A stretch of 64,000 bases of DNA from an uncultured Gammaproteobacteria bacterium. GTDB taxonomy: Bacteria > Patescibacteriota > Patescibacteriia > Veblenbacterales > UBA10138. Under the pieces are notes generated by a model. The model was not told the origin of the DNA, ran no database searches, and saw nothing but the letters and a program-made list of their open reading frames with translations. The DNA lies in contig CAYGDX010000001.1 in assembly GCA_964348825.1 (NCBI GenBank), positions 175,463 through 239,462 on the forward strand, written 5' to 3'. This document shows, in pieces, positions 5,746 to 64,000 of the stretch (its first letter is position 1; every line of letters starts with the position of its first letter). The translations under genes and the position numbers were made by a program.

Positions 5746-6120
5746 ATGAGTTATTTAGATTTAGTATTTTTCTTAGGCCGAGTTTTATTTGGCGGATTTT
5801 TTATTTTAAACGGCATAAATCATTTTGCTAAACATGAAATGTTAGCGGGTTATGCGGGAAGTAAAGGCGTGCCAATGGCTAGTACGGCCGTGTATTTAAC
5901 TGGCTTGCTTTTAACTTTAGGCGGCTTGGGCGTGCTACTTGGTTTTTATGTTCAATGGGCGCTAGTGCTTTTGGTAGTATTTTTAGTGCCAGTAAGCTTT
6001 ATGATGCACGCCTTCTGGAAAGTTGCAGACGCTCAAGCTAAAATGATGGACAAAATTCAATTTCAAAAAAATATGGCACTGCTCGGCGCGGTTTTGATGT
6101 TGCTGGCATTGTGGAGTTAA
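5746..6120 (+). CDS. DoxX-family membrane protein
   Basis: 124 aa with four predicted TM helices. The signature (LGRVLFGGFFILNGINHF…) is typical of DoxX/DUF417-type small membrane proteins. Confidence 0.6.
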   Translation: MSYLDLVFFLGRVLFGGFFILNGINHFAKHEMLAGYAGSKGVPMASTAVYLTGLLLTLGGLGVLLGFYVQWALVLLVVFLVPVSFMMHAFWKVADAQAKMMDKIQFQKNMALLGAVLMLLALWS

Positions 6121-6201
6121 TAAGTTTTTTGTCATTCTGAGTCATCAGACGAAGAATCTTTAAGATTATTCGTTTCATTTGGGATAACAATTATTATACT
6201 T

Positions 6202-7011
6202 ATGCCTGTTCTACAAAACTTACGTACCGATGTAAATAAGTTAAAAAGTCCAGTCAAATCCAAGATTTTGCAAAGATTTTTTAAAACAGGTAAGGGTGAA
6301 TATGGAGCAGGGGATATATTTTTAGGATTAACTGTGCCAGAATCAAGATTAATTGCTAAAAAATACGCGTCTGTAATTAAAAATAGCGAATTAGAAAAAT
6401 TATTATCATCAAAGTATCATGAGGAGCGCTTGATTGCGCTCCTTATTTTAGTACAGAAGTTTAATTTGATATCAGCTGAGAGATTCCAATTGTCATCCCC
6501 GCGGAGGCGGGGATCCAGAAAAATAAGCCAGGTTAAATCAATTCTGGATTCCCACTTTCGTGGGAATGACAAAAACGCGGCTGTTAATCAGAAAAAAGTT
6601 GTGGATTTTTATTTAGCGCATCTCTCAGCCGTTAATAATTGGGATTTAGTTGATTTGTCGGCTGATAAAATTTTTGGACGATATTTGTTAGGCAAGTCAA
6701 CTAAAATTTTATACAAATTTATAAAGTCAAAAAATTTATGGGAGAGGCGGATTGCGATTGTATCTACTTTTGCTTTTATTAAACAAAATAAATTTACTGA
6801 CGCCTTACGTCTATCCAAAATATTATTAAAAGATAAACACGATTTAATTCACAAAGCGTGCGGTTGGATGCTCCGCGAAGTCGGCAAGCGTAATGTAGGC
6901 ATACTTTTAAAATTTTTAAATAAAAATAGTTCACAAATGCCTCGCACTATGCTCCGTTATGCAATTGAGCGACTACCGAAGAATAAAAAGAAATTTTATC
7001 TAGAAAAATAA
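6202..7011 (+). CDS. DNA alkylation repair enzyme (AlkD/AlkC-like HEAT-repeat protein) carrying a ~30-aa in-frame repeat-element insertion
   Basis: The N-terminus (…KLKSPVKSKILQRFFKTGKGEYGAGDIFLGLTVPESRLIAKKYAS…) and the C-terminal half (…WDLVDLSADKIFGRYLL…RRIAIVSTFAFIKQNKF…HDLIHKACGWMLREVGKRN) match the DNA_alkylation family. The central SSPRRRGSRKISQVKSILDSHFRGNDKNAAV is encoded by two inverted copies of the short palindromic repeat (6490..6520 and 6543..6572). Confidence 0.65.
   Translation: MPVLQNLRTDVNKLKSPVKSKILQRFFKTGKGEYGAGDIFLGLTVPESRLIAKKYASVIKNSELEKLLSSKYHEERLIALLILVQKFNLISAERFQLSSPRRRGSRKISQVKSILDSHFRGNDKNAAVNQKKVVDFYLAHLSAVNNWDLVDLSADKIFGRYLLGKSTKILYKFIKSKNLWERRIAIVSTFAFIKQNKFTDALRLSKILLKDKHDLIHKACGWMLREVGKRNVGILLKFLNKNSSQMPRTMLRYAIERLPKNKKKFYLEK
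6490..6572. repeat. Two inverted copies of the ~30 bp ATTCCC-N8-GGGAAT palindromic unit inserted in-frame in the alkylation-repair gene
   Basis: 6490..6520 reads tgtcatccccgcggaggcggggatccagaa. 6543..6572 reads ttctggattcccactttcgtgggaatgaca (reverse complement of the unit). Confidence 0.8.
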
Positions 7012-7147
7012 TTTAAGTGTTATGTACCAATGTGTTAACTCAGTACTACAAATAGTACTGGGCGTAGCACATCAATACAGTAATTTGTGGCGGCAAAAAT
7101 GAAGTGGTGGTGGTTGTAAGTTGGATTAAAAATGGTAAAATAAGTTC

Positions 7148-10100
7148 ATGATAAAACCTAACCAAAAGCAAGATTTGTTAAGGGATTTAAATGAAGCCCA
7201 AAGTTCGGCGGTTACACATACCACCGGTCCGCTTTTGATTGTGGCGGGTGCGGGCACTGGTAAAACTACAGTGATTACCCGTCGGATTGTTTGGTTAATT
7301 GAGCAAGGGTTAGCTTCCCACGACGAAATTTTAGCGCTTACTTTTACGGATAAAGCGGCTGGTGAAATGGAAGAGCGGGTGGATCGTTTACTGCCACTAG
7401 GGTACGTAAATTTATGGATTTCCACTTTTCACGCTTTTGCCGAGCGCGTGCTTAAAGATTGGGCCCTAGAAATTGGGCTACCAAATGATTTTAAATTAAT
7501 TACGCCAACCGAACAATGGTTACTGGTGAGACAGAATTTAGATAAATTTGATTTGGATTATTATCGACCGCTTGGTAATCCGACTAAATTTGTGCATGCG
7601 CTCCTCAGGCATTTTTCGCGTGCGAAGGATGAGGATGTGTGGCCCGAAGATTATTTGAAATTGGCGGAAGGGAAAGTTTTGGATACGGGGCGAGGAGAGT
7701 ATTTAAAGAAAAATTCGAAAAAGTCACGTAGTCAGAAAGTCAAGAAGTCAGACAGTGATTTAATGGATTTATCTGATGAAGTTGAAACAGAGGCGGGGCG
7801 GCTTTTGGAAATTGCTAAAGCGTATCACACTTATCAACAATTACTGCTTGAGAAAGGTGTTTTAGATTTTGGTGATTTAATAAATTATACCTTAAAACTT
7901 TTTCGTACTCGCCCCAAAGTTTTGAATCAGTATCGTAATCAATTTAAATATTTGTTAGTCGATGAATTTCAAGATACTAATTACGCGCAGTATGAATTGG
8001 TAAAAATGCTCGCCGCCCCACAAAATAATGTCACCGTGGTCGGCGACGATGATCAATCGGTTTACAAATTCCGCGGCGCCTCCATTTCTAATATTTTGGA
8101 ATTTAAGCAGGATTATCGAAAAGCAGCGCAAATTATTTTAACTCAAAACTATCGTTCCACGCAAAATATTTTAGATTTATCATATAAATTTATTCAGCTT
8201 AATAATCCTTATCGTTTGGAAGTTAAATTAAAAGACGATGAACACAAAATTTCTAAGCAGTTGTCGAGCAATTCCAAACTTACCGGCGAAGTTGATTTAA
8301 GTGTTTTTCCCAATATGCACCAAGAGGCGAGTGGTGTGATTAAAAAAATTATTGAGCTTAAAAATAAAGACAAATCAGCCACTTGGAATGATTTTGCGAT
8401 TCTAGCCCGCGCCAATGCCTCGGCTGAACCGTTTTTACAAGAATTAAAAAAATCTGGGATTCCTTATGAATATGTAGCGAGTAAGGGTTTGTATCAAGAA
8501 GATATTATTTTAGATATCGTTTCGTATCTTAAACTCTTAGATAATTATCACGAATCACAAGCCGTGTATCGTGTGCTAACTACACCGTATTTGGCTTTAC
8601 CAAATAATGATTTATCTAGCTTACTTTATTTTGCCAATCGTAAGGCGATGTCGCTTTACGAGGCCTTGCGTGAAGCGCCGATAATTCCTTTAAGTGAAGC
8701 GGGGCAAAAACAAGCTACGAAAATAATTTCTTTGATAGAAACACATTCCTCATTTGCGCGCGAACATACCGTAGCAGAAGTGTATTTAAAAGTAGTGCGG
8801 GAAATTGGTTTAACTGATTGGCTGACTAAACAAGCGGATGATTATGTAACAGTTAAACAAGCCAGCTACTTAAATGCGTTTTATCGGAAAATTCAAGAAT
8901 TTGAATTAGCTAGTCGCGAGAAAAAATTAAATAATTGGTTAGAAATTTTTGCGTTAGAATTGGAAGCCGGCGAAGAAGGCGTGATGCCTAGTTCGGCCGA
9001 AGAAGGACCAGAAATGGTAAAAGTAATTACCGTGCATTCGGCCAAGGGTTTGGAATTTAAATACGTGTTTATTGTGCATTTGGTAGATCGCCGGTTTCCT
9101 TCTACTGAACGGCGCGAGGCCATAGAACTGCCAACCGAACTGACCAAAGAAATTTTACCGGAAGGCGATGTGCATTTGCAAGAAGAGCGTCGACTTTTTT
9201 ATGTGGCGATGACACGCGCGAAATACGGTTTATATTTTTCTTATGCGGAAGATTATTTTGGCAAGCAACAGCGCAAACCCTCTCGCTTTTTATATGAATT
9301 GGGTTTAGTTGAAGGTGAGCCAAGTCGCGCTAAGTCAAATTTAGTTAGCTCTAGTCAGGAAGTCGCAAAAGTTAATTCAACTTCGGTTAATTATAAAATT
9401 CCGGAATCGTTTTCATTTTCATCTATTTCTAGTTATTTAAAATGTCCACTGGAATATAAATATCGATATCTACTTAAAATTCCGGCGCCGGGTAATGCTT
9501 ATTTGAGTTTTGGTTCAAGCATGCACAAAACTTTGGAGCTTTTTATGAAATTGTGGCAGGGAAAGCTTTCTTCGCGACAACTCGGTTTATTTGGTGATGC
9601 AAAATTAAGTGGGCAAATAGAACTTCCAACTTTTAAAGAGTTGTTAAAATTTTATGATGATTCGTGGATAGATGATTGGTATGATAATAAACCGGATCGT
9701 GAAAAATATAAAGAAAGAGGTAAAGAACAGTTAAAGAATTTTTATGAGAAATTCAAAGTTGATAATCCCCAGCCAAAATATTTGGAACAATTTTTTAAAT
9801 TACGTTTTGGAGATTATAAATTTTCGGGTAAGATTGATAGAATGGATGTAGGCACTTCTGGACTTACTATAATAGATTACAAAACTAGTGAAAAGCCGCC
9901 TAAAACTTTTGCCAAAGTAGATAAAGATCAGCTTTTAATTTATCAATTGGCGGCGCAGGAATTTTTTCGTGAGAAAGTAGCGGGCTGTAAATATTATTAT
10001 TTGCATCCCAATATTACTTCTGATTTATTTTTAGGTACACCCGAGGAGTTAGAGGATTTACGCGCGCGTTATTTAGCAGTAATTAAGGATATTGTGGAAT

Positions 10101-13465: not shown

Positions 13466-13719
13466 TACCCCACCTAACCCCGCCTCATCGGCGGACAAGC
13501 TCCCTATAATGTATTTTAGGAAGAAATTTTACTAAATTTGGCTATTAGTTAGCCATTTTTTAATATGTCTTTCCAACTTGTGGAATTATCTAAAAAATGT
13601 TAAACTAATAGTAGTTTTACAGTACTATTTTGGTTGTTTTTTATTTATATCTGGATTCCCGCTTTCGCGGGAATGACGGGTGTAAATGTTAACAGTTTTG
13701 AGTTTTAACTTTTTATATT

Positions 13720-28920: not shown

Positions 28921-28950
28921 GATAGGCGTCATTCCCGCGTAGGCGGGAAT
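28921..28950 (+). repeat. Short palindromic unit (gtcattcccgcgtaggcgggaatctagaa) just downstream of rplA
   Basis: One of about 10 copies. Others lie at 13651..13680 (inverted), 54889..54922, 56503..56531, 57344..57375, 58213..58278 (with an internal insertion), 62143..62172, 63643..63672 (inverted) and two inside 6490..6572. The stem is ATTCCCGC/GCGGGAAT with a variable 4-5 nt loop and compensatory changes (cccac/gtggg). Confidence 0.8.
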
Positions 28951-28954
28951 CTAG

Positions 28955-29085
28955 AAACTAAAATTTCAAATGACAAATGTCAAATTTCAAATCAAATCCA
29001 AAATTATAATGTTAAAATTTTTAATCATTTAGTCATTTGACATTGATTTGTTATTTGGATTTTGACATTTGAAATTAAATACTTC
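28955..29085. repeat. Intergenic word repeat family D (atttcaaatgtcaaat / tttgacatttgaaat) upstream of dcd
   Basis: Built from ttgacatttgaaat words in both orientations. Related copies lie at 28120..28140, 62225..62285 and 63560..63600. Confidence 0.7.
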
Positions 29086-29141
29086 TAAACAGTTGAATAT
29101 TTAGTCATAGTGTAATATCATTAAAATGCTTAAATATTTTA

Positions 29142-53827: not shown

Positions 53828-54892
53828 TTAATGATTCTCTTTTTTTAGCTCTTCAATCACAAGCTCTAAACCACCTTCCATAATATTCGGTAAATTGTGG
53901 AAGTTTTGATTTATTCGATGATCAGTTAGGCGGTCTTGCGGGAAGTTGTAAGTGCGGATTTTTTCAGAGCGCTCACCACTGCCAATTTGAGAGCGGCGTG
54001 AGGCGTCGCGTGCACTATGTAATTGCTCTTGCTTGAGCGCGAGTAATCGTGAACGTAGAACAATCATAGCTTTTTCTTTATTTTGTTTTTGGGAACGTTC
54101 GTCTTGACATTGTACTGTTAAACCAGTTGGCAAGTGTACAATACGAATGGCCGAGTAAGTAGTATTAACTGATTGTCCGCCGTGTCCTGAAGCAGTGTTG
54201 GCTTCAATTTTTAAATCTTCTGGTTTAATTTCCATATCTATTTCATCGGCTTCGGGGAGTACTGCCACCGTCACAGTTGAAGTGTGTACTCGACCATTTT
54301 TTTCAGTATCAGGCACACGTTGTACGCGGTGCACGCCGCTTTCGTATTTTAAATCAGAGTATACGCGGCGTCCGGTTATTTCCAAAGTAATATCTTTAAA
54401 ACCGCCGACATCATTACGGCTGGAATCAATAATTTGCACTTGCCATTTTTTACTTTCAGCGTACCGTGTATACATACGATACAAATCAGCCGCGAAAAGC
54501 GCGGCTTCGTCGCCACCAGTGCCACCGCGTATTTCCATAATGATATTTTTACCGTCCATTGGATCAGATGGTTCAAGGAGCTCCCTTAACTCGGCGTTTA
54601 TTTTGGCTAAATGAGTGGTGGTTTTTATATTTTCTTCAACAATCATATTTTTCATTTCAGCTTCAGTTTCGTTTTTAGCAGATGATTCCAAATGTTCAAG
54701 CTCTTGCATTAAATTTTTTCTTTTTTCTGCCAAATCCAAAATCTCCCGTACCGAGGTGTACTCGCGGTTTAGTTGGGTCAGCAAGGGTTGGTTGGTAAGC
54801 GTATCGGCTTGTGCAAGTTTGGCTTCTAGTTCAGCTTGCCTTTCCTCTAGGGTGATAAGTTTTTGGTCGATATTGGTCATAATCGTTGTCAT
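53828..54892 (-). CDS. prfA: Peptide chain release factor 1
   Basis: 354 aa. GGQ motif ([11 protein letters not shown]) plus RF1-type domains. Confidence 0.95.
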
Positions 54893-54922
54893 TCCCGCGT
54901 AGGCGGGAATCCAGAAAATTAA
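54889..54922 (+). repeat. Short palindromic unit immediately upstream of the prfA start
   Basis: ttgtcattcccgcgtaggcgggaatccagaaaat. Confidence 0.8.
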
Positions 54923-56491: not shown

Positions 56492-56502
56492 TTTTATAAC
56501 TG

Positions 56503-56531
56503 TCATTCCCGCGGAGGCGGGAATCCAGAAA
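56503..56531 (+). repeat. Short palindromic unit downstream of rpsB
   Basis: tgtcattcccgcggaggcgggaatccagaa. Confidence 0.8.
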
Positions 56532-56710
56532 CATAAATCCTAAATCCTAATATCTAAACTCTAAATAAATCCCAATAACTAAAATCCAAAAAAGTTTTAA
56601 ACATTTGAATTTTAGATTTATTTCGGATTTCGCCTGCCTGCCGGTAGGCAGGGATTTAGTGCTTCGGATTTAAACACCATTGATTTAAAATTATAAATTT
56701 AAAATTTAAT

Positions 56711-57325
56711 ATGAGTATTTCTATCAACGATATCCAAAATCTAAGGAATATTACCGGTGCTGGCATGATGTCAGCCAAGCGTGCATTAGAAGAAGCGGGT
56801 GGTGATGTGCAAAAAGCCGTTGATTTATTGCGTCAAAAGGGGGTAAAAGTAGCGGCCGGCAAAAGCGATCGTACCACTAGCCAAGGTTTGATTGAATCAT
56901 ATATTCACGGCGAGGGAACACTTGGTGTTTTAGTGGAAGTGGCTTGTGAAACAGATTTTGTGGCGCGCACCGATAATTTTAAAAATTTGGCGCATGATTT
57001 AGCTATGCAAATTGCGGCTTCCGCGCCGCAGTATATTCAAGCGGAAGATGTGCCAGCCGAAGTAGTTGAGCGTGAAAAGGCGGTTTATGTGGCGCAACTC
57101 GCTGAACAAGGCAAGAGCGGTGAAATGGCCGAAAAAATAATTATCGGCAAGCTGGAAAAGTTTTACGCCGAAGTTTGTTTGCTAAAACAACCGTTTTTTA
57201 AAGATGATAAAAAAACCGTGGGTGATGTAGTTACTGAAATGATTGCGACTTTAGGGGAAAATATTAAAGTAAAGAGGTTTGCGAGGTTTGGTTTGAGTGG
57301 AGGTGCGAGTGTTTGTAGTAAGTAA
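56711..57325 (+). CDS. tsf: Elongation factor Ts (short form)
   Basis: 204 aa. N-terminal UBA-like region (IQNLRNITGAGMMSAKRALEEAGGDVQKAVDLLRQKG) and dimerisation core. Confidence 0.9.
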   Translation: MSISINDIQNLRNITGAGMMSAKRALEEAGGDVQKAVDLLRQKGVKVAAGKSDRTTSQGLIESYIHGEGTLGVLVEVACETDFVARTDNFKNLAHDLAMQIAASAPQYIQAEDVPAEVVEREKAVYVAQLAEQGKSGEMAEKIIIGKLEKFYAEVCLLKQPFFKDDKKTVGDVVTEMIATLGENIKVKRFARFGLSGGASVCSK

Positions 57326-57478
57326 GAGTCTAGAGTAAGAGTATTGTGTCATTCCCGCGTAGGTGGGAAGCTATTAATTTAAAAATTAAAAATCAAAATG
57401 GAAAATGACAATGTAAAATGAAAAATTTTAAATTTTAATTTGTCATTTTTATTTTTGATATTTACATTTTGATTTTTT

Positions 57479-62120: not shown

Positions 62121-62142
62121 CGAATGGCAAATAGCACGATTG

Positions 62143-62172
62143 TCATTCCCGCGAAAGTGGGAATCTAGAAAT
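62143..62172 (+). repeat. Short palindromic unit downstream of gap
   Basis: ttgtcattcccgcgaaagtgggaatctagaaa. Confidence 0.8.
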
Positions 62173-62294
62173 AAATCGTTTAAATCCTAAATCCGAATAT
62201 CGAAATCCGAAATAAATCACAAATTCTAAAATTTAGTCATTTGGATTTGATTTGACATTTGGATTTTGAAATTTGAAATTATACAACTCAGGTT

Positions 62295-63467
62295 ATGTCA
62301 AATAAATTCAAATCCATTGCTGAACATTATAATATCAAAGGCAAAACCGCCTTGGTTCGCATTGGTTGCGACGTGCCGATGCAAGGTAAAAAAATTGTCG
62401 ACGATAGTCGTCTGCGAGAAATTTTACCGACTATAAGATTTTTAGAAAAGCATGGCGCATATATTATTTTAGTAGGTCATTTAGGTCGACCGGGTGGAAA
62501 AGTTGTGTCGTCGCTATCATTAAAACCAATTGGTTATCATTTAGGAAAATTATTGCGTCAACCAGTAAAAGTAATACCAATTAATTATGGTTATAAAAAA
62601 ATAATCAGTGAAGCCAAAAGTGGCGTGGTGCTACTTGAAAATATTCGTTTCGAAGTCGGGGAAGATTCTAATGATAATAATTTAGCTAAAAATTTAGCGC
62701 GACTAGCTGATTTTTTTGTAAACGAGGCCTTCTCTGTTTCCCATCGCGAGTCAGCTTCTTTGTGTGGTGTGGCTAAATATTTACCGTCGTTTGCGGGGCT
62801 GACTTTATACCATGAAATCACGACGCTTAAAAAATTTATGTCGCCGCGTAGAAAAATTAAGTCAGTAGCGATTATTGGTGGTGCAAAAGTAGCTGATAAA
62901 TTGCCAGTGATAAAGTCACTGCTTAAAAAAGTAGATTATGTTTTAACTGGTGGTGCAGTAGCCAATACTTTACTTAAAGCTAAAGGTAGGGAAGTTGGCG
63001 TATCGTTAATTGATAAAGATGATTTGTCAATTGCTCGTGTTTTGGTTCGAGGTTCAGCCCGCGTTTTGGTTTTACCTAAAGATGTTGTAGTATCTAAGGG
63101 CGCGCGAGGCCTAATTAAATTCGCCACAAAATTATCGGTTCGTGATAAAATTATTGATTTAGGACCACTTACCACCGCTTTATATTTAAAGTATTTAAAA
63201 ACAGCTCGTATTATTTTTTGGGCTGGTAGTTTAGGAATTACCGAACATAAAGTTGGTAGTCAAAGCACTTTAGCAATTGGTAAGTTTTTATCTAAAATGT
63301 CGCATGGCAGTACCCAAGTGTTGGTAGGTGGCGGCGATACTGGTAGTTTTTTAATAAATCAAGGTTTAAAAGTCACTCATATTTCAACCGCTGGTGGAGC
63401 ACTGCTTGAATTTTTAGCGGGACATAAACTTCCAGCATTAATGGCGTTAGGTTATTACGAAAGGTAA
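62295..63467 (+). CDS. pgk: Phosphoglycerate kinase
   Basis: 390 aa (…ILVGHLGRPGG…, FVNEAFSVSHR, GGGDTGSF). Confidence 0.93.
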   Translation: MSNKFKSIAEHYNIKGKTALVRIGCDVPMQGKKIVDDSRLREILPTIRFLEKHGAYIILVGHLGRPGGKVVSSLSLKPIGYHLGKLLRQPVKVIPINYGYKKIISEAKSGVVLLENIRFEVGEDSNDNNLAKNLARLADFFVNEAFSVSHRESASLCGVAKYLPSFAGLTLYHEITTLKKFMSPRRKIKSVAIIGGAKVADKLPVIKSLLKKVDYVLTGGAVANTLLKAKGREVGVSLIDKDDLSIARVLVRGSARVLVLPKDVVVSKGARGLIKFATKLSVRDKIIDLGPLTTALYLKYLKTARIIFWAGSLGITEHKVGSQSTLAIGKFLSKMSHGSTQVLVGGGDTGSFLINQGLKVTHISTAGGALLEFLAGHKLPALMALGYYER

Positions 63468-63629
63468 AATTAAATATTAATTTATATTTAAATCCATAAT
63501 GTCTAAATCCTAATATCTAATTTCTAAACTCTAAATAAATTCAAAATATATAAATCAGAAAAGTTTAAATTTTAGTCATTTGGATTTTAAAATTTATTTA
63601 GGATTTAGTGCTTCGGATTTCGGATTTAA

Positions 63630-64000
<371 letters not shown>

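Follow-up and report, generated by a model that had tools for sequence, protein, structure and literature searches.

The repeat family with which this work is concerned has been described as dRS3 or NTS in Neisseria, as RPE-6 in Rickettsia and as the 'Ssn-related motif' (SRM), and here we report a pair of its units inside a DNA repair gene of a Candidate Phyla Radiation (CPR) bacterium, namely in alkD (6202..7011, plus strand) on a 64,000-nt stretch of contig CAYGDX010000001.1 (positions 175,463 to 239,462; called the window below, with coordinates counted from its first letter). Di Nocera et al. (2013) described CGTC-1 elements among the tagged repetitive extragenic palindromic (REP) sequences, and according to their survey such an element has an unpaired head CGTC, often altered to TGTC, directly 5' of a stem of 8 bp that starts in AT, then a loop of 4 nt and the tail CCA, and the family takes in both Neisseria dRS3 and Rickettsia RPE-6 (PMC3733652). 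The same text presents CGTC REPs as dispersed, mostly located just downstream of open reading frames (ORFs), often arranged as inverted pairs, lacking a dedicated transposase and occurring in five phyla, mostly in Alphaproteobacteria; it also describes intragenic REP dimers that encode 20-30 aa in frame, many of them in genes for DNA synthesis or repair and also in that for TruB (PMC3733652). Researchers reported in 2025 that in Neisseria the NTS (CGTCATTCCCGCGMAVGCGGGAATCYRG) occurs in the arrangement NTS-ssnA-NTS, that the GIY-YIG single-stranded DNA (ssDNA) nuclease SsnA cuts adjacent to it and reduces how much transforming DNA is integrated, and that Ssn homologues are abundant in Pseudomonadati (PMC11893778). 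Rickettsia palindromic elements (RPEs; Ogata et al. 2000, 2002), as outlined in PMC10969869, lie in frame in housekeeping genes and are translated without the protein being destroyed.

We consider it highly likely that the segment in alkD is a dimer of the genome's own dispersed hairpin REP of the CGTC-1/NTS type, carried in frame and tolerated in a permissive loop of AlkD. Two inverted arms of 31 nt each (6490-6520 and 6542-6572; 81% complementary, with 21 nt between them) contain the two units. Unit 1 (6491..6518, plus strand) reads TGTC-ATCCCCGC-GGAG-GCGGGGAT-CCAG, with the head TGTC at 6491-6494, the stem at 6495-6502 and 6507-6514, the loop GGAG at 6503-6506 and the tail CCAG at 6515-6518. 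Unit 2 (6544..6571, minus strand) reads TGTC-ATTCCCAC-GAAA-GTGGGAAT-CCAG, with the tail at 6544-6547, the stem at 6548-6555 and 6560-6567, the loop at 6556-6559 and the head at 6568-6571. In both, the stem is perfect over 8 bp and starts with AT, the loop measures 4 nt and the tail includes CCA, and they are placed so that the TGTC heads point outward and the tails point toward an A/T-rich spacer of 25 nt (6519..6543). The 28-nt NTS motif matches seven units of the window at 0-3 mismatches, against 0.00 expected; one intergenic unit (13651..13678, minus strand) agrees with it at 28 of 28 positions, the other six differ at 1-3, Unit 2 has 3 mismatches, and Unit 1 lies just outside with 4 mismatches counted by eye. 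Taken literally, the published degenerate SRM expression recovers only 4 of the window's units.

The dispersal that is typical of CGTC-1 elements is also seen here, as the repeat is multi-copy and its copies, headed by CGTC or TGTC, lie chiefly in intergenic DNA and downstream of ORFs. Ten copies are present in the window, the eight outside alkD all being intergenic, and five of these lie 10-40 nt after rplA, rpsB, tsf or gap, or downstream of pgk. The dispersed units include, besides the perfect NTS match, one 38 nt past the ribosomal protein L1 gene rplA (28927..28954, plus strand), one adjoining the start of a minus-strand release-factor gene (54887..54914, plus), one 10 nt past rpsB (56501..56528, plus), a degenerate one 22 nt past tsf (57347..57371, plus), one with a G:T pair in its stem 21 nt past gap (62141..62168, plus) and one downstream of pgk (63642..63669, minus).

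Comparison with orthologues shows that the segment was inserted into the gene. In the best 120 of at least 8000 homologues, the stretch from the invariant L83 to the invariant Y137 has a modal length of 18 aa (72 of 120) and measures 14-19 aa in about 99, while it is 53 aa long in the window protein; among 76 metagenome loci sampled at the DNA level, GDxFxG and NxWDLVD are most often 216 nt apart (47 loci), as against 324 nt here. About 85% of the homologues lack the insert, the 269-aa architecture is common only to an identical protein and to one that is 89% identical, and the empty site of orthologue L009 consists of 57 nt of AT-rich DNA that forms no hairpin. Since the additional residues are shared only with 89%-identical sister proteins, they are an insertion and not conserved native sequence. 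From the loop lengths and motif distances the extra piece is estimated at 105-108 nt or 35-36 aa; it falls within 6466..6585 (plus strand), with boundaries uncertain by about 9 nt, and encodes LISAERFQLSSPRRRGSRKISQVKSILDSHFRGNDKNAAV.

An earlier note on this DNA, made from the sequence alone, had described an AlkD-like ORF holding an inverted pair of palindromic units, and this description holds, as do its claim that the reading frame is kept and the translation it quoted, which an ORF check reproduced. The insertion itself also stands, whereas its dimensions of about 30 aa and 90 bp were too small and the spacer of 22 bp was misjudged, there being 21 nt between the arms and 25 nt between the tails. 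The cruciform or stem-loop that the note suspected is borne out by folding: as RNA, 6478-6576 forms a single long stem-loop (-45.4 kcal/mol, z = -6.96, none of 200 shuffled sequences being as stable), and as DNA it forms two hairpins closed by a terminal stem (-22.1 kcal/mol, z = -5.5). Its further view of the pair as a composite mini-element is upheld by the same outward-facing dimer being present in at least 120 genomes and at the same loop in orthologues. Two things were missing from that note, namely that the unit belongs to a described repeat family and that this loop has been struck repeatedly.

The host gene encodes an intact AlkD-family DNA glycosylase of 269 aa, a HEAT-like repeat protein identified from the ORF list, Pfam and Foldseek, and its match to Pfam PF08713 (DNA_alkylation, E 5.7e-57) is split into two stretches by the insert. 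Sequence and predicted structure agree on a HEAT-like solenoid with a catalytic Trp-x3-Asp and a second Trp: motif alignment places NNW147DLVD151 on WWDSVD of Bacillus cereus AlkD and GW222MLRE on GWVLRE, motifs that contain the catalytic residues Trp109, Asp113 and Trp187 of that enzyme. W147, D151 and W222 of the catalytic motifs are thereby preserved, and all family-invariant residues are retained. An AlphaFold2 model built from 25 homologues (mean predicted local distance difference test score, pLDDT, 88.7; predicted template modelling score 0.85) has B. cereus AlkD structures as its top Foldseek matches (template modelling score 0.77-0.82 normalised to target; probability 1.00 for 5uuf, 5cl3 and 3jx7). 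In this model the insert lies between a native helix (residue 73 to about 88) and the helix 126-139, where the prediction, at low confidence, prolongs the first helix and adds a short one at 106-118. Low confidence is limited to residues 90-125. Ten-residue block means of pLDDT over residues 91-130 are 58, 48, 53 and 76, while values elsewhere are mostly above 90, apart from a second dip to 69-79 across residues 21-40. By homology of HEERLIALLILVQKF to EREFQAAALDIMQKY of AlkD, where the alignment is fuzzy, the site probably corresponds to the alphaE-alphaF loop of the B. cereus enzyme, and the antiparallel topology of the helices suggests that this loop would be found along the solenoid edge that lies opposite the catalytic helix's N-terminus.

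The gene has remained under purifying selection since it acquired the insert. We compared it with L001, a contig of a sister lineage from Hainich groundwater whose alkD also has the insert; the two copies are 88.1% identical in DNA, their differences fall on codon positions 1, 2 and 3 in the numbers 26, 14 and 56, and the host part has a nonsynonymous rate (dN) of 0.065 and a synonymous rate (dS) of 0.54, which gives a dN/dS of 0.12 against a lineage that already shares the insert. Independent assemblies contain the insert: besides the window, these are L001, protein P0121 and the long-read contig L010. Short-read assemblies have an unbroken ORF, and the sole broken copy is on the long-read contig with homopolymer errors; P0122, a 63-aa cluster member from that contig, was considered as a pseudogene and rejected, as it shows homopolymer frameshifts with the insert present, and it provides no independent data point because L010 belongs to the L001 lineage. 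Relatives are annotated as Patescibacteria, and the window has a G+C content of 37%. Of the two outcomes that the earlier note had left side by side, the tolerated loop rich in Arg and Ser is favoured by the low dN/dS and the preserved catalytic-motif residues, and silent inactivation without a frameshift is disfavoured by the same evidence; all three of its proposed checks agreed with it, those on orthologues and on structure by pointing to an insertion between helices and that on folding by pointing to a stem-loop or hairpins.

Taken together, we suggest the following course of events. A REP dimer would have been copied into DNA coding for the long, variable and surface-exposed loop of AlkD; having a length that is a multiple of three and being free of stop codons in the frame used, it would be translated as a poorly ordered excursion of 35 residues rich in Arg and Ser, with the solenoid fold and the catalytic residues left untouched. 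Six-frame translation of 6490-6572 shows that the 83-nt dimer is stop-free only in the frame used and in its antisense counterpart, the other frames being stopped within the spacer. The peptide appears to be translated and merely tolerated. Its net charge is +6 in the window and ranges from -3 to +7 across orthologues, so that no common role at the protein level is apparent.

Because intragenic REP dimers (PMC3733652) and the Rickettsia RPEs provide precedents, the event belongs to a known kind, with the host and the gene being new. The alkD units share the head, stem, loop, tail, dispersal, inverted pairing and in-frame intragenic dimer with the published CGTC-1 elements. They differ from what the consulted sections of the survey describe in that the host is a CPR (Patescibacteria) lineage, which is not named there, that the gene is one for an AlkD-family glycosylase, and that one loop has received several unit families in many orthologues, REPs at the same site being mentioned there only for Xanthomonas recB (PMC3733652). 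The Neisseria dRS3/NTS is the same sequence as the window units, whereas its function has been demonstrated on transforming ssDNA and not on units inside a coding sequence (PMC11893778). Like the RPEs, the insert is palindromic, in frame and tolerated; it is stop-free and lies between helices in a region of low pLDDT. However, the RPEs described first were about 150 bp long with a conserved peptide, while here an 83-nt dimer of 28-nt units encodes peptides that vary among orthologues, and its host is not Rickettsia but a CPR lineage of groundwater, either free-living or episymbiotic; the only link to the families RPE-1 to RPE-10 is the statement in PMC3733652 that RPE-6 is a CGTC-1 element.

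A close structural parallel was found in Rfam, where WsnRNA46 (RF02625; Wolbachia sRNA 46, sRNA standing for small RNA) matches the segment over its full length at 32 bits (E 5.8e-5), below the gathering threshold of 65.3 bits. Its layout, head-unit-CCAGAAAAA...CTGG-unit-head, is identical, and its termini and junctions (UGUCAU...GGGAUCCAGAAAAAU ... CUGGAUUCC...AUGACA) are nearly so; the stems differ, however, the spacers measure 18 nt and 45 nt, and the match does not imply that the element acts as an sRNA here. The unit is also included in the Rfam model of Francisella FtrB. The Coxiella elements QMITE1 and QMITE2 (PMC5896051) were considered as relatives and set aside as a different family, QMITE2 having a GTAG REP.

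The outward-facing dimer is widespread. Scanning one genome per species, we found it in at least 120 genomes, and the matches listed include Alpha-, Beta- and Gammaproteobacteria, Planctomycetes, Gemmatimonadetes, Nitrospirae, Chloroflexi, Poribacteria, Falkowbacteria, Roizmanbacteria and a Bathyarchaeota bin (L064, 1741-1817), by which the CGTC-1 family would reach the Archaea unless the bin is contaminated. Long stop-free frames hold 19 of 126 dimers among the matches listed. Among ten of these that were tested, five lie in frame within Pfam-verified genes, while several of the others come from high-GC genomes, where such frames arise by chance; the verified genes are those for a GT4 glycosyltransferase, an SLT/TPR protein, a Mur ligase, an ABC ATPase and TruB, and in the glycosyltransferase, the SLT/TPR protein and the ABC ATPase the dimer lies between Pfam domain matches.

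What goes modestly beyond the known kind of event, and is modestly surprising, is that one loop has been used recurrently and that the nucleotides of the insert are unusually conserved. As to the first, the loop at this site, and no other, is expanded to 25-53 aa in 18 of the 120 homologues, and no insert of more than 7 aa occurs elsewhere in the protein. The DNA of eight insert-bearing orthologues follows a common plan, (T/C)GTCAT-hairpin ... hairpin-ATGAC(A/G) over 58-116 nt, with differing stem families and lengths and, in some, extra hairpins nested in the loop of a unit; in L005 (277-405), L007 (1136-1255) and L211, the loop of the left unit holds another GC-rich hairpin, like an insertion within an insertion. 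The metagenome sample added a further CGTC dimer (L171) and other palindromes (L157, L161), and all 5-6 loop expansions among its AlkD loci are in frame and stop-free. In L155 (1605-1821) we observed an in-frame stop in a loop region of normal length; this may reflect a sequencing error, the use of an alternative genetic code or a pseudogene. Insert-bearing sequences occupy at least nine places of a neighbour-joining tree, and one clade has the insert in seven of its eight members, so that both inheritance and repeated gain are likely.

This recurrence could mean that the loop is a true integration hotspot, where copying prefers the sequence or structure of the DNA and the pattern reflects targeting rather than survival. 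We regard this as unlikely, although all 18 expansions of at least 25 aa fall in this loop, insert-bearing sequences are scattered over at least nine places of the tree, and the heads start 22, 25 or 28 nt past the anchor codon in seven orthologues of various unit families, that is, within a span of about 6 nt. The head starts 41 nt past that codon in the window, and its codon phase is always 1 in the orthologues examined and 2 in the window. Against a hotspot, the empty sites share no conserved motif besides AT-richness, part of the pattern is inheritance in view of the clade with seven of eight members, and the tree is a rough one with long terminal branches. This loop is the sole long, length-variable and unconserved one of the protein, measuring 14-19 aa even when insert-free and with 'x' throughout its consensus, and dimers in other verified genes often lie between Pfam matches, which fits a filter for permissive sites. 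The loop therefore seems to have been struck repeatedly mainly because insertions survive in the only long unconstrained loop, with the permissive-site filter as the chief cause.

The second unusual feature is a 99-nt block (6478..6576) without a single substitution relative to L001, while the remaining 711 nt of alkD have 96 differences. The probability of zero differences is 1.6e-6 for a pre-specified block of this length, 1e-4 for the longest run anywhere under a uniform model and 2.7e-4 for third positions alone, and dS is 0.08 in the insert, about sevenfold lower than in the host part. Directly beyond the block there are five differences in 6 nt (6577-6582), where the window has GCGGCT and L001 (2910-2915) has ATTGAG, encoding AA and IE, respectively; this junction is hypervariable beside an invariant block. 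Compared with the window consensus stem ATTCCCGC/GCGGGAAT, each alkD unit has one fully compensated pair: in Unit 1 the change T>C is balanced by A>G, and in Unit 2 G>A is balanced by C>T. The unit at 62141 represents a G:T intermediate.

These observations raise the possibility that the dimer is kept in the coding sequence by selection at the nucleic acid level, either as a site recognised by an Ssn-type ssDNA nuclease, by which recombination or transformation across the repair gene would be limited, or as an mRNA stem-loop that sets the stability of the transcript or the rate of translation. The invariant block, the stems kept perfect through compensated changes, the fold z-score of about -7 and the cleavage of Neisseria units of the same sequence as ssDNA by SsnA, with less integration of transforming DNA (PMC11893778), all point this way. 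We nevertheless think it rather improbable, as the comparison covers only two independent lineages and the neighbouring doxX gene has an identical run of 84 nt at similar divergence; moreover, the compensated variants may predate the insertion, gene conversion by other copies would be expected to leave the same pattern, the window contains no GIY-YIG gene, and the inserts of orthologues differ in unit family and in length. Gene conversion or pre-existing variation among the units could thus be the source of both the conservation and the compensation. More doubtful still is the joint and bolder proposal that the alphaE-alphaF loop of AlkD is a preferred landing site for NTS/SRM dimers across the CPR and that the dimers, once there, come under nucleotide-level selection and serve as signals in ssDNA or RNA rather than being junk, such as Ssn-like nuclease sites by which recombination at a repair gene would be gated; if it were true, a coding sequence would double as a repeat-encoded control element.

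That alkD is a pseudogene whose reading frame has been kept by chance is very improbable: an insertion of 35 aa one helix upstream of the catalytic motif, with low AlphaFold2 confidence there, might suggest it, but the dN/dS of 0.12 after insertion, the excess of third-position changes, the retention of the invariant residues and an ORF that is broken only on the long-read contig speak against it, and the sequence data support the conclusion that the gene has not been inactivated by the insert. Hardly credible at all is the removal of the segment after transcription or translation, in the manner of an intron or intein, so that it would be missing from the mature protein, for although the long terminal stem would join the two ends of the element and CPR bacteria are known for intervening sequences in their rRNA genes, none of the loop expansions seen, those of the DNA-based sample included, breaks the frame or holds a stop, a constraint that removal would not impose, 35 aa is too short for an intein, and no Rfam intron family was matched.

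Several observations weigh against a tolerated REP dimer as the full account. The synthesis of the peptide and the activity of the insert-bearing AlkD are surmised from sequence. The low dS of the insert and the compensated stem changes in both units are unexpected for a purely neutral passenger, and with all 18 expansions in one of about 15 loops, a target preference is also possible. The two units and the spacer amount to 83 nt, which leaves about 26 nt of flanks that belong neither to the units nor to a normal loop; the 5' flank LISAERFQL might be a relic of an older unit of the RHPEL/RHFEL type (compare L211 and L007), although the codon-wise DNA identity of only about 40% does not exceed what AT-rich DNA would give. 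The terminal inverted repeats (the 31-nt arms, TTGTCAT...ATGACAA) are those expected of a miniature inverted-repeat transposable element, but the other marks of such an element, a target-site duplication and a related autonomous insertion sequence, are lacking: neither in the window nor in eight orthologues is the element bordered by a direct repeat, and no transposase-like gene adjoins any unit of the window or occurs elsewhere in it. A motif scan and a tblastn search with a YhbQ-like query detected no GIY-YIG gene in the 64-kb window either; the cognate nuclease of the NTS-Ssn system is a small GIY-YIG protein (cd10448) whose gene often has the repeats on its flanks. The NTS-ssnA-NTS arrangement offers the obvious lead as to how the element spreads.

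Further observations concern the surroundings of the repeats. A GIY-YIG-type ORF of 83-86 aa (133-390) lies 1.1 kb upstream of alkD on L166, a 404-kb metagenome contig, and is followed by a perfect hairpin; as a candidate for the partner nuclease it was rejected, since it has no flanking GTCAT units and NCBIfam gave only a weak match to group I intron endonucleases. Directly upstream of alkD, the spacer holds a unit (6131..6158, plus strand) that belongs to a second family with the head GTCAT (GTCATTCTGAGTCATCAGACGAAGAATC) and has tandem G.A/A.G mismatches in its stem, and this family and the related GTCATCCTGAAC...GTGAAGGATC family are the ones found as alkD-loop inserts in L003, L005, L006 and L007, the insert of L003 being of the GTCATTCTGAGTCATCAGACGAAGAATC family. 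In L001 (1363-2511 and 3435-4672, compared with 6120-7148 of the window), three additional genes stand around alkD: upstream, that of a Flg_new_2/PKD protein of 382 aa, and downstream, an ORF of 161 aa and a gene for an NYN-domain protein; as they are absent from the window, local synteny around the repeat-bearing gene is fluid. Within the window, tsf is flanked by two units in direct orientation (56501-57371) and pgk by two in inverted orientation (62141-63669), which resembles the repeat-gene-repeat layout discussed for ssnA, but what the units enclose here are ordinary housekeeping genes. After the intergenic units comes an A-rich arm of low complexity with AAATCC(T/G)AAATCC repeats and then a T-rich mirror arm (GGATTTnGGATTT), at 56529-56710, 62169-62294, 63500-63641, 28955-29141 and 57372-57478, so that the spacers between housekeeping genes look like long, imperfect, AT-rich palindromes, and the rpsB-tsf spacer additionally contains the GC hairpin CCTGCCTGCCGGTAGGCAGG. 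A role of the units as terminators was rejected for want of T-runs: a terminator scan found no terminator-like site in the insert (6466-6585) and no T-run after the units of the window.

Thus, the phenomenon of palindromic repeats written into proteins, as known from RPEs and intragenic REPs, is extended to a CPR genome. Patescibacteria have the 28-nt Neisseria NTS/dRS3 sequence in almost the same form, and its outward-facing dimers occur in many phyla. For annotation, this means that 'loops' rich in Arg, Ser and Gly, such as DSRFRGND, in proteins of metagenome-assembled genomes are repeat-derived. The repeated colonisation of one loop amounts to a natural series of insertion variants, with which questions of site permissiveness and of selection on the repeats themselves can be approached.

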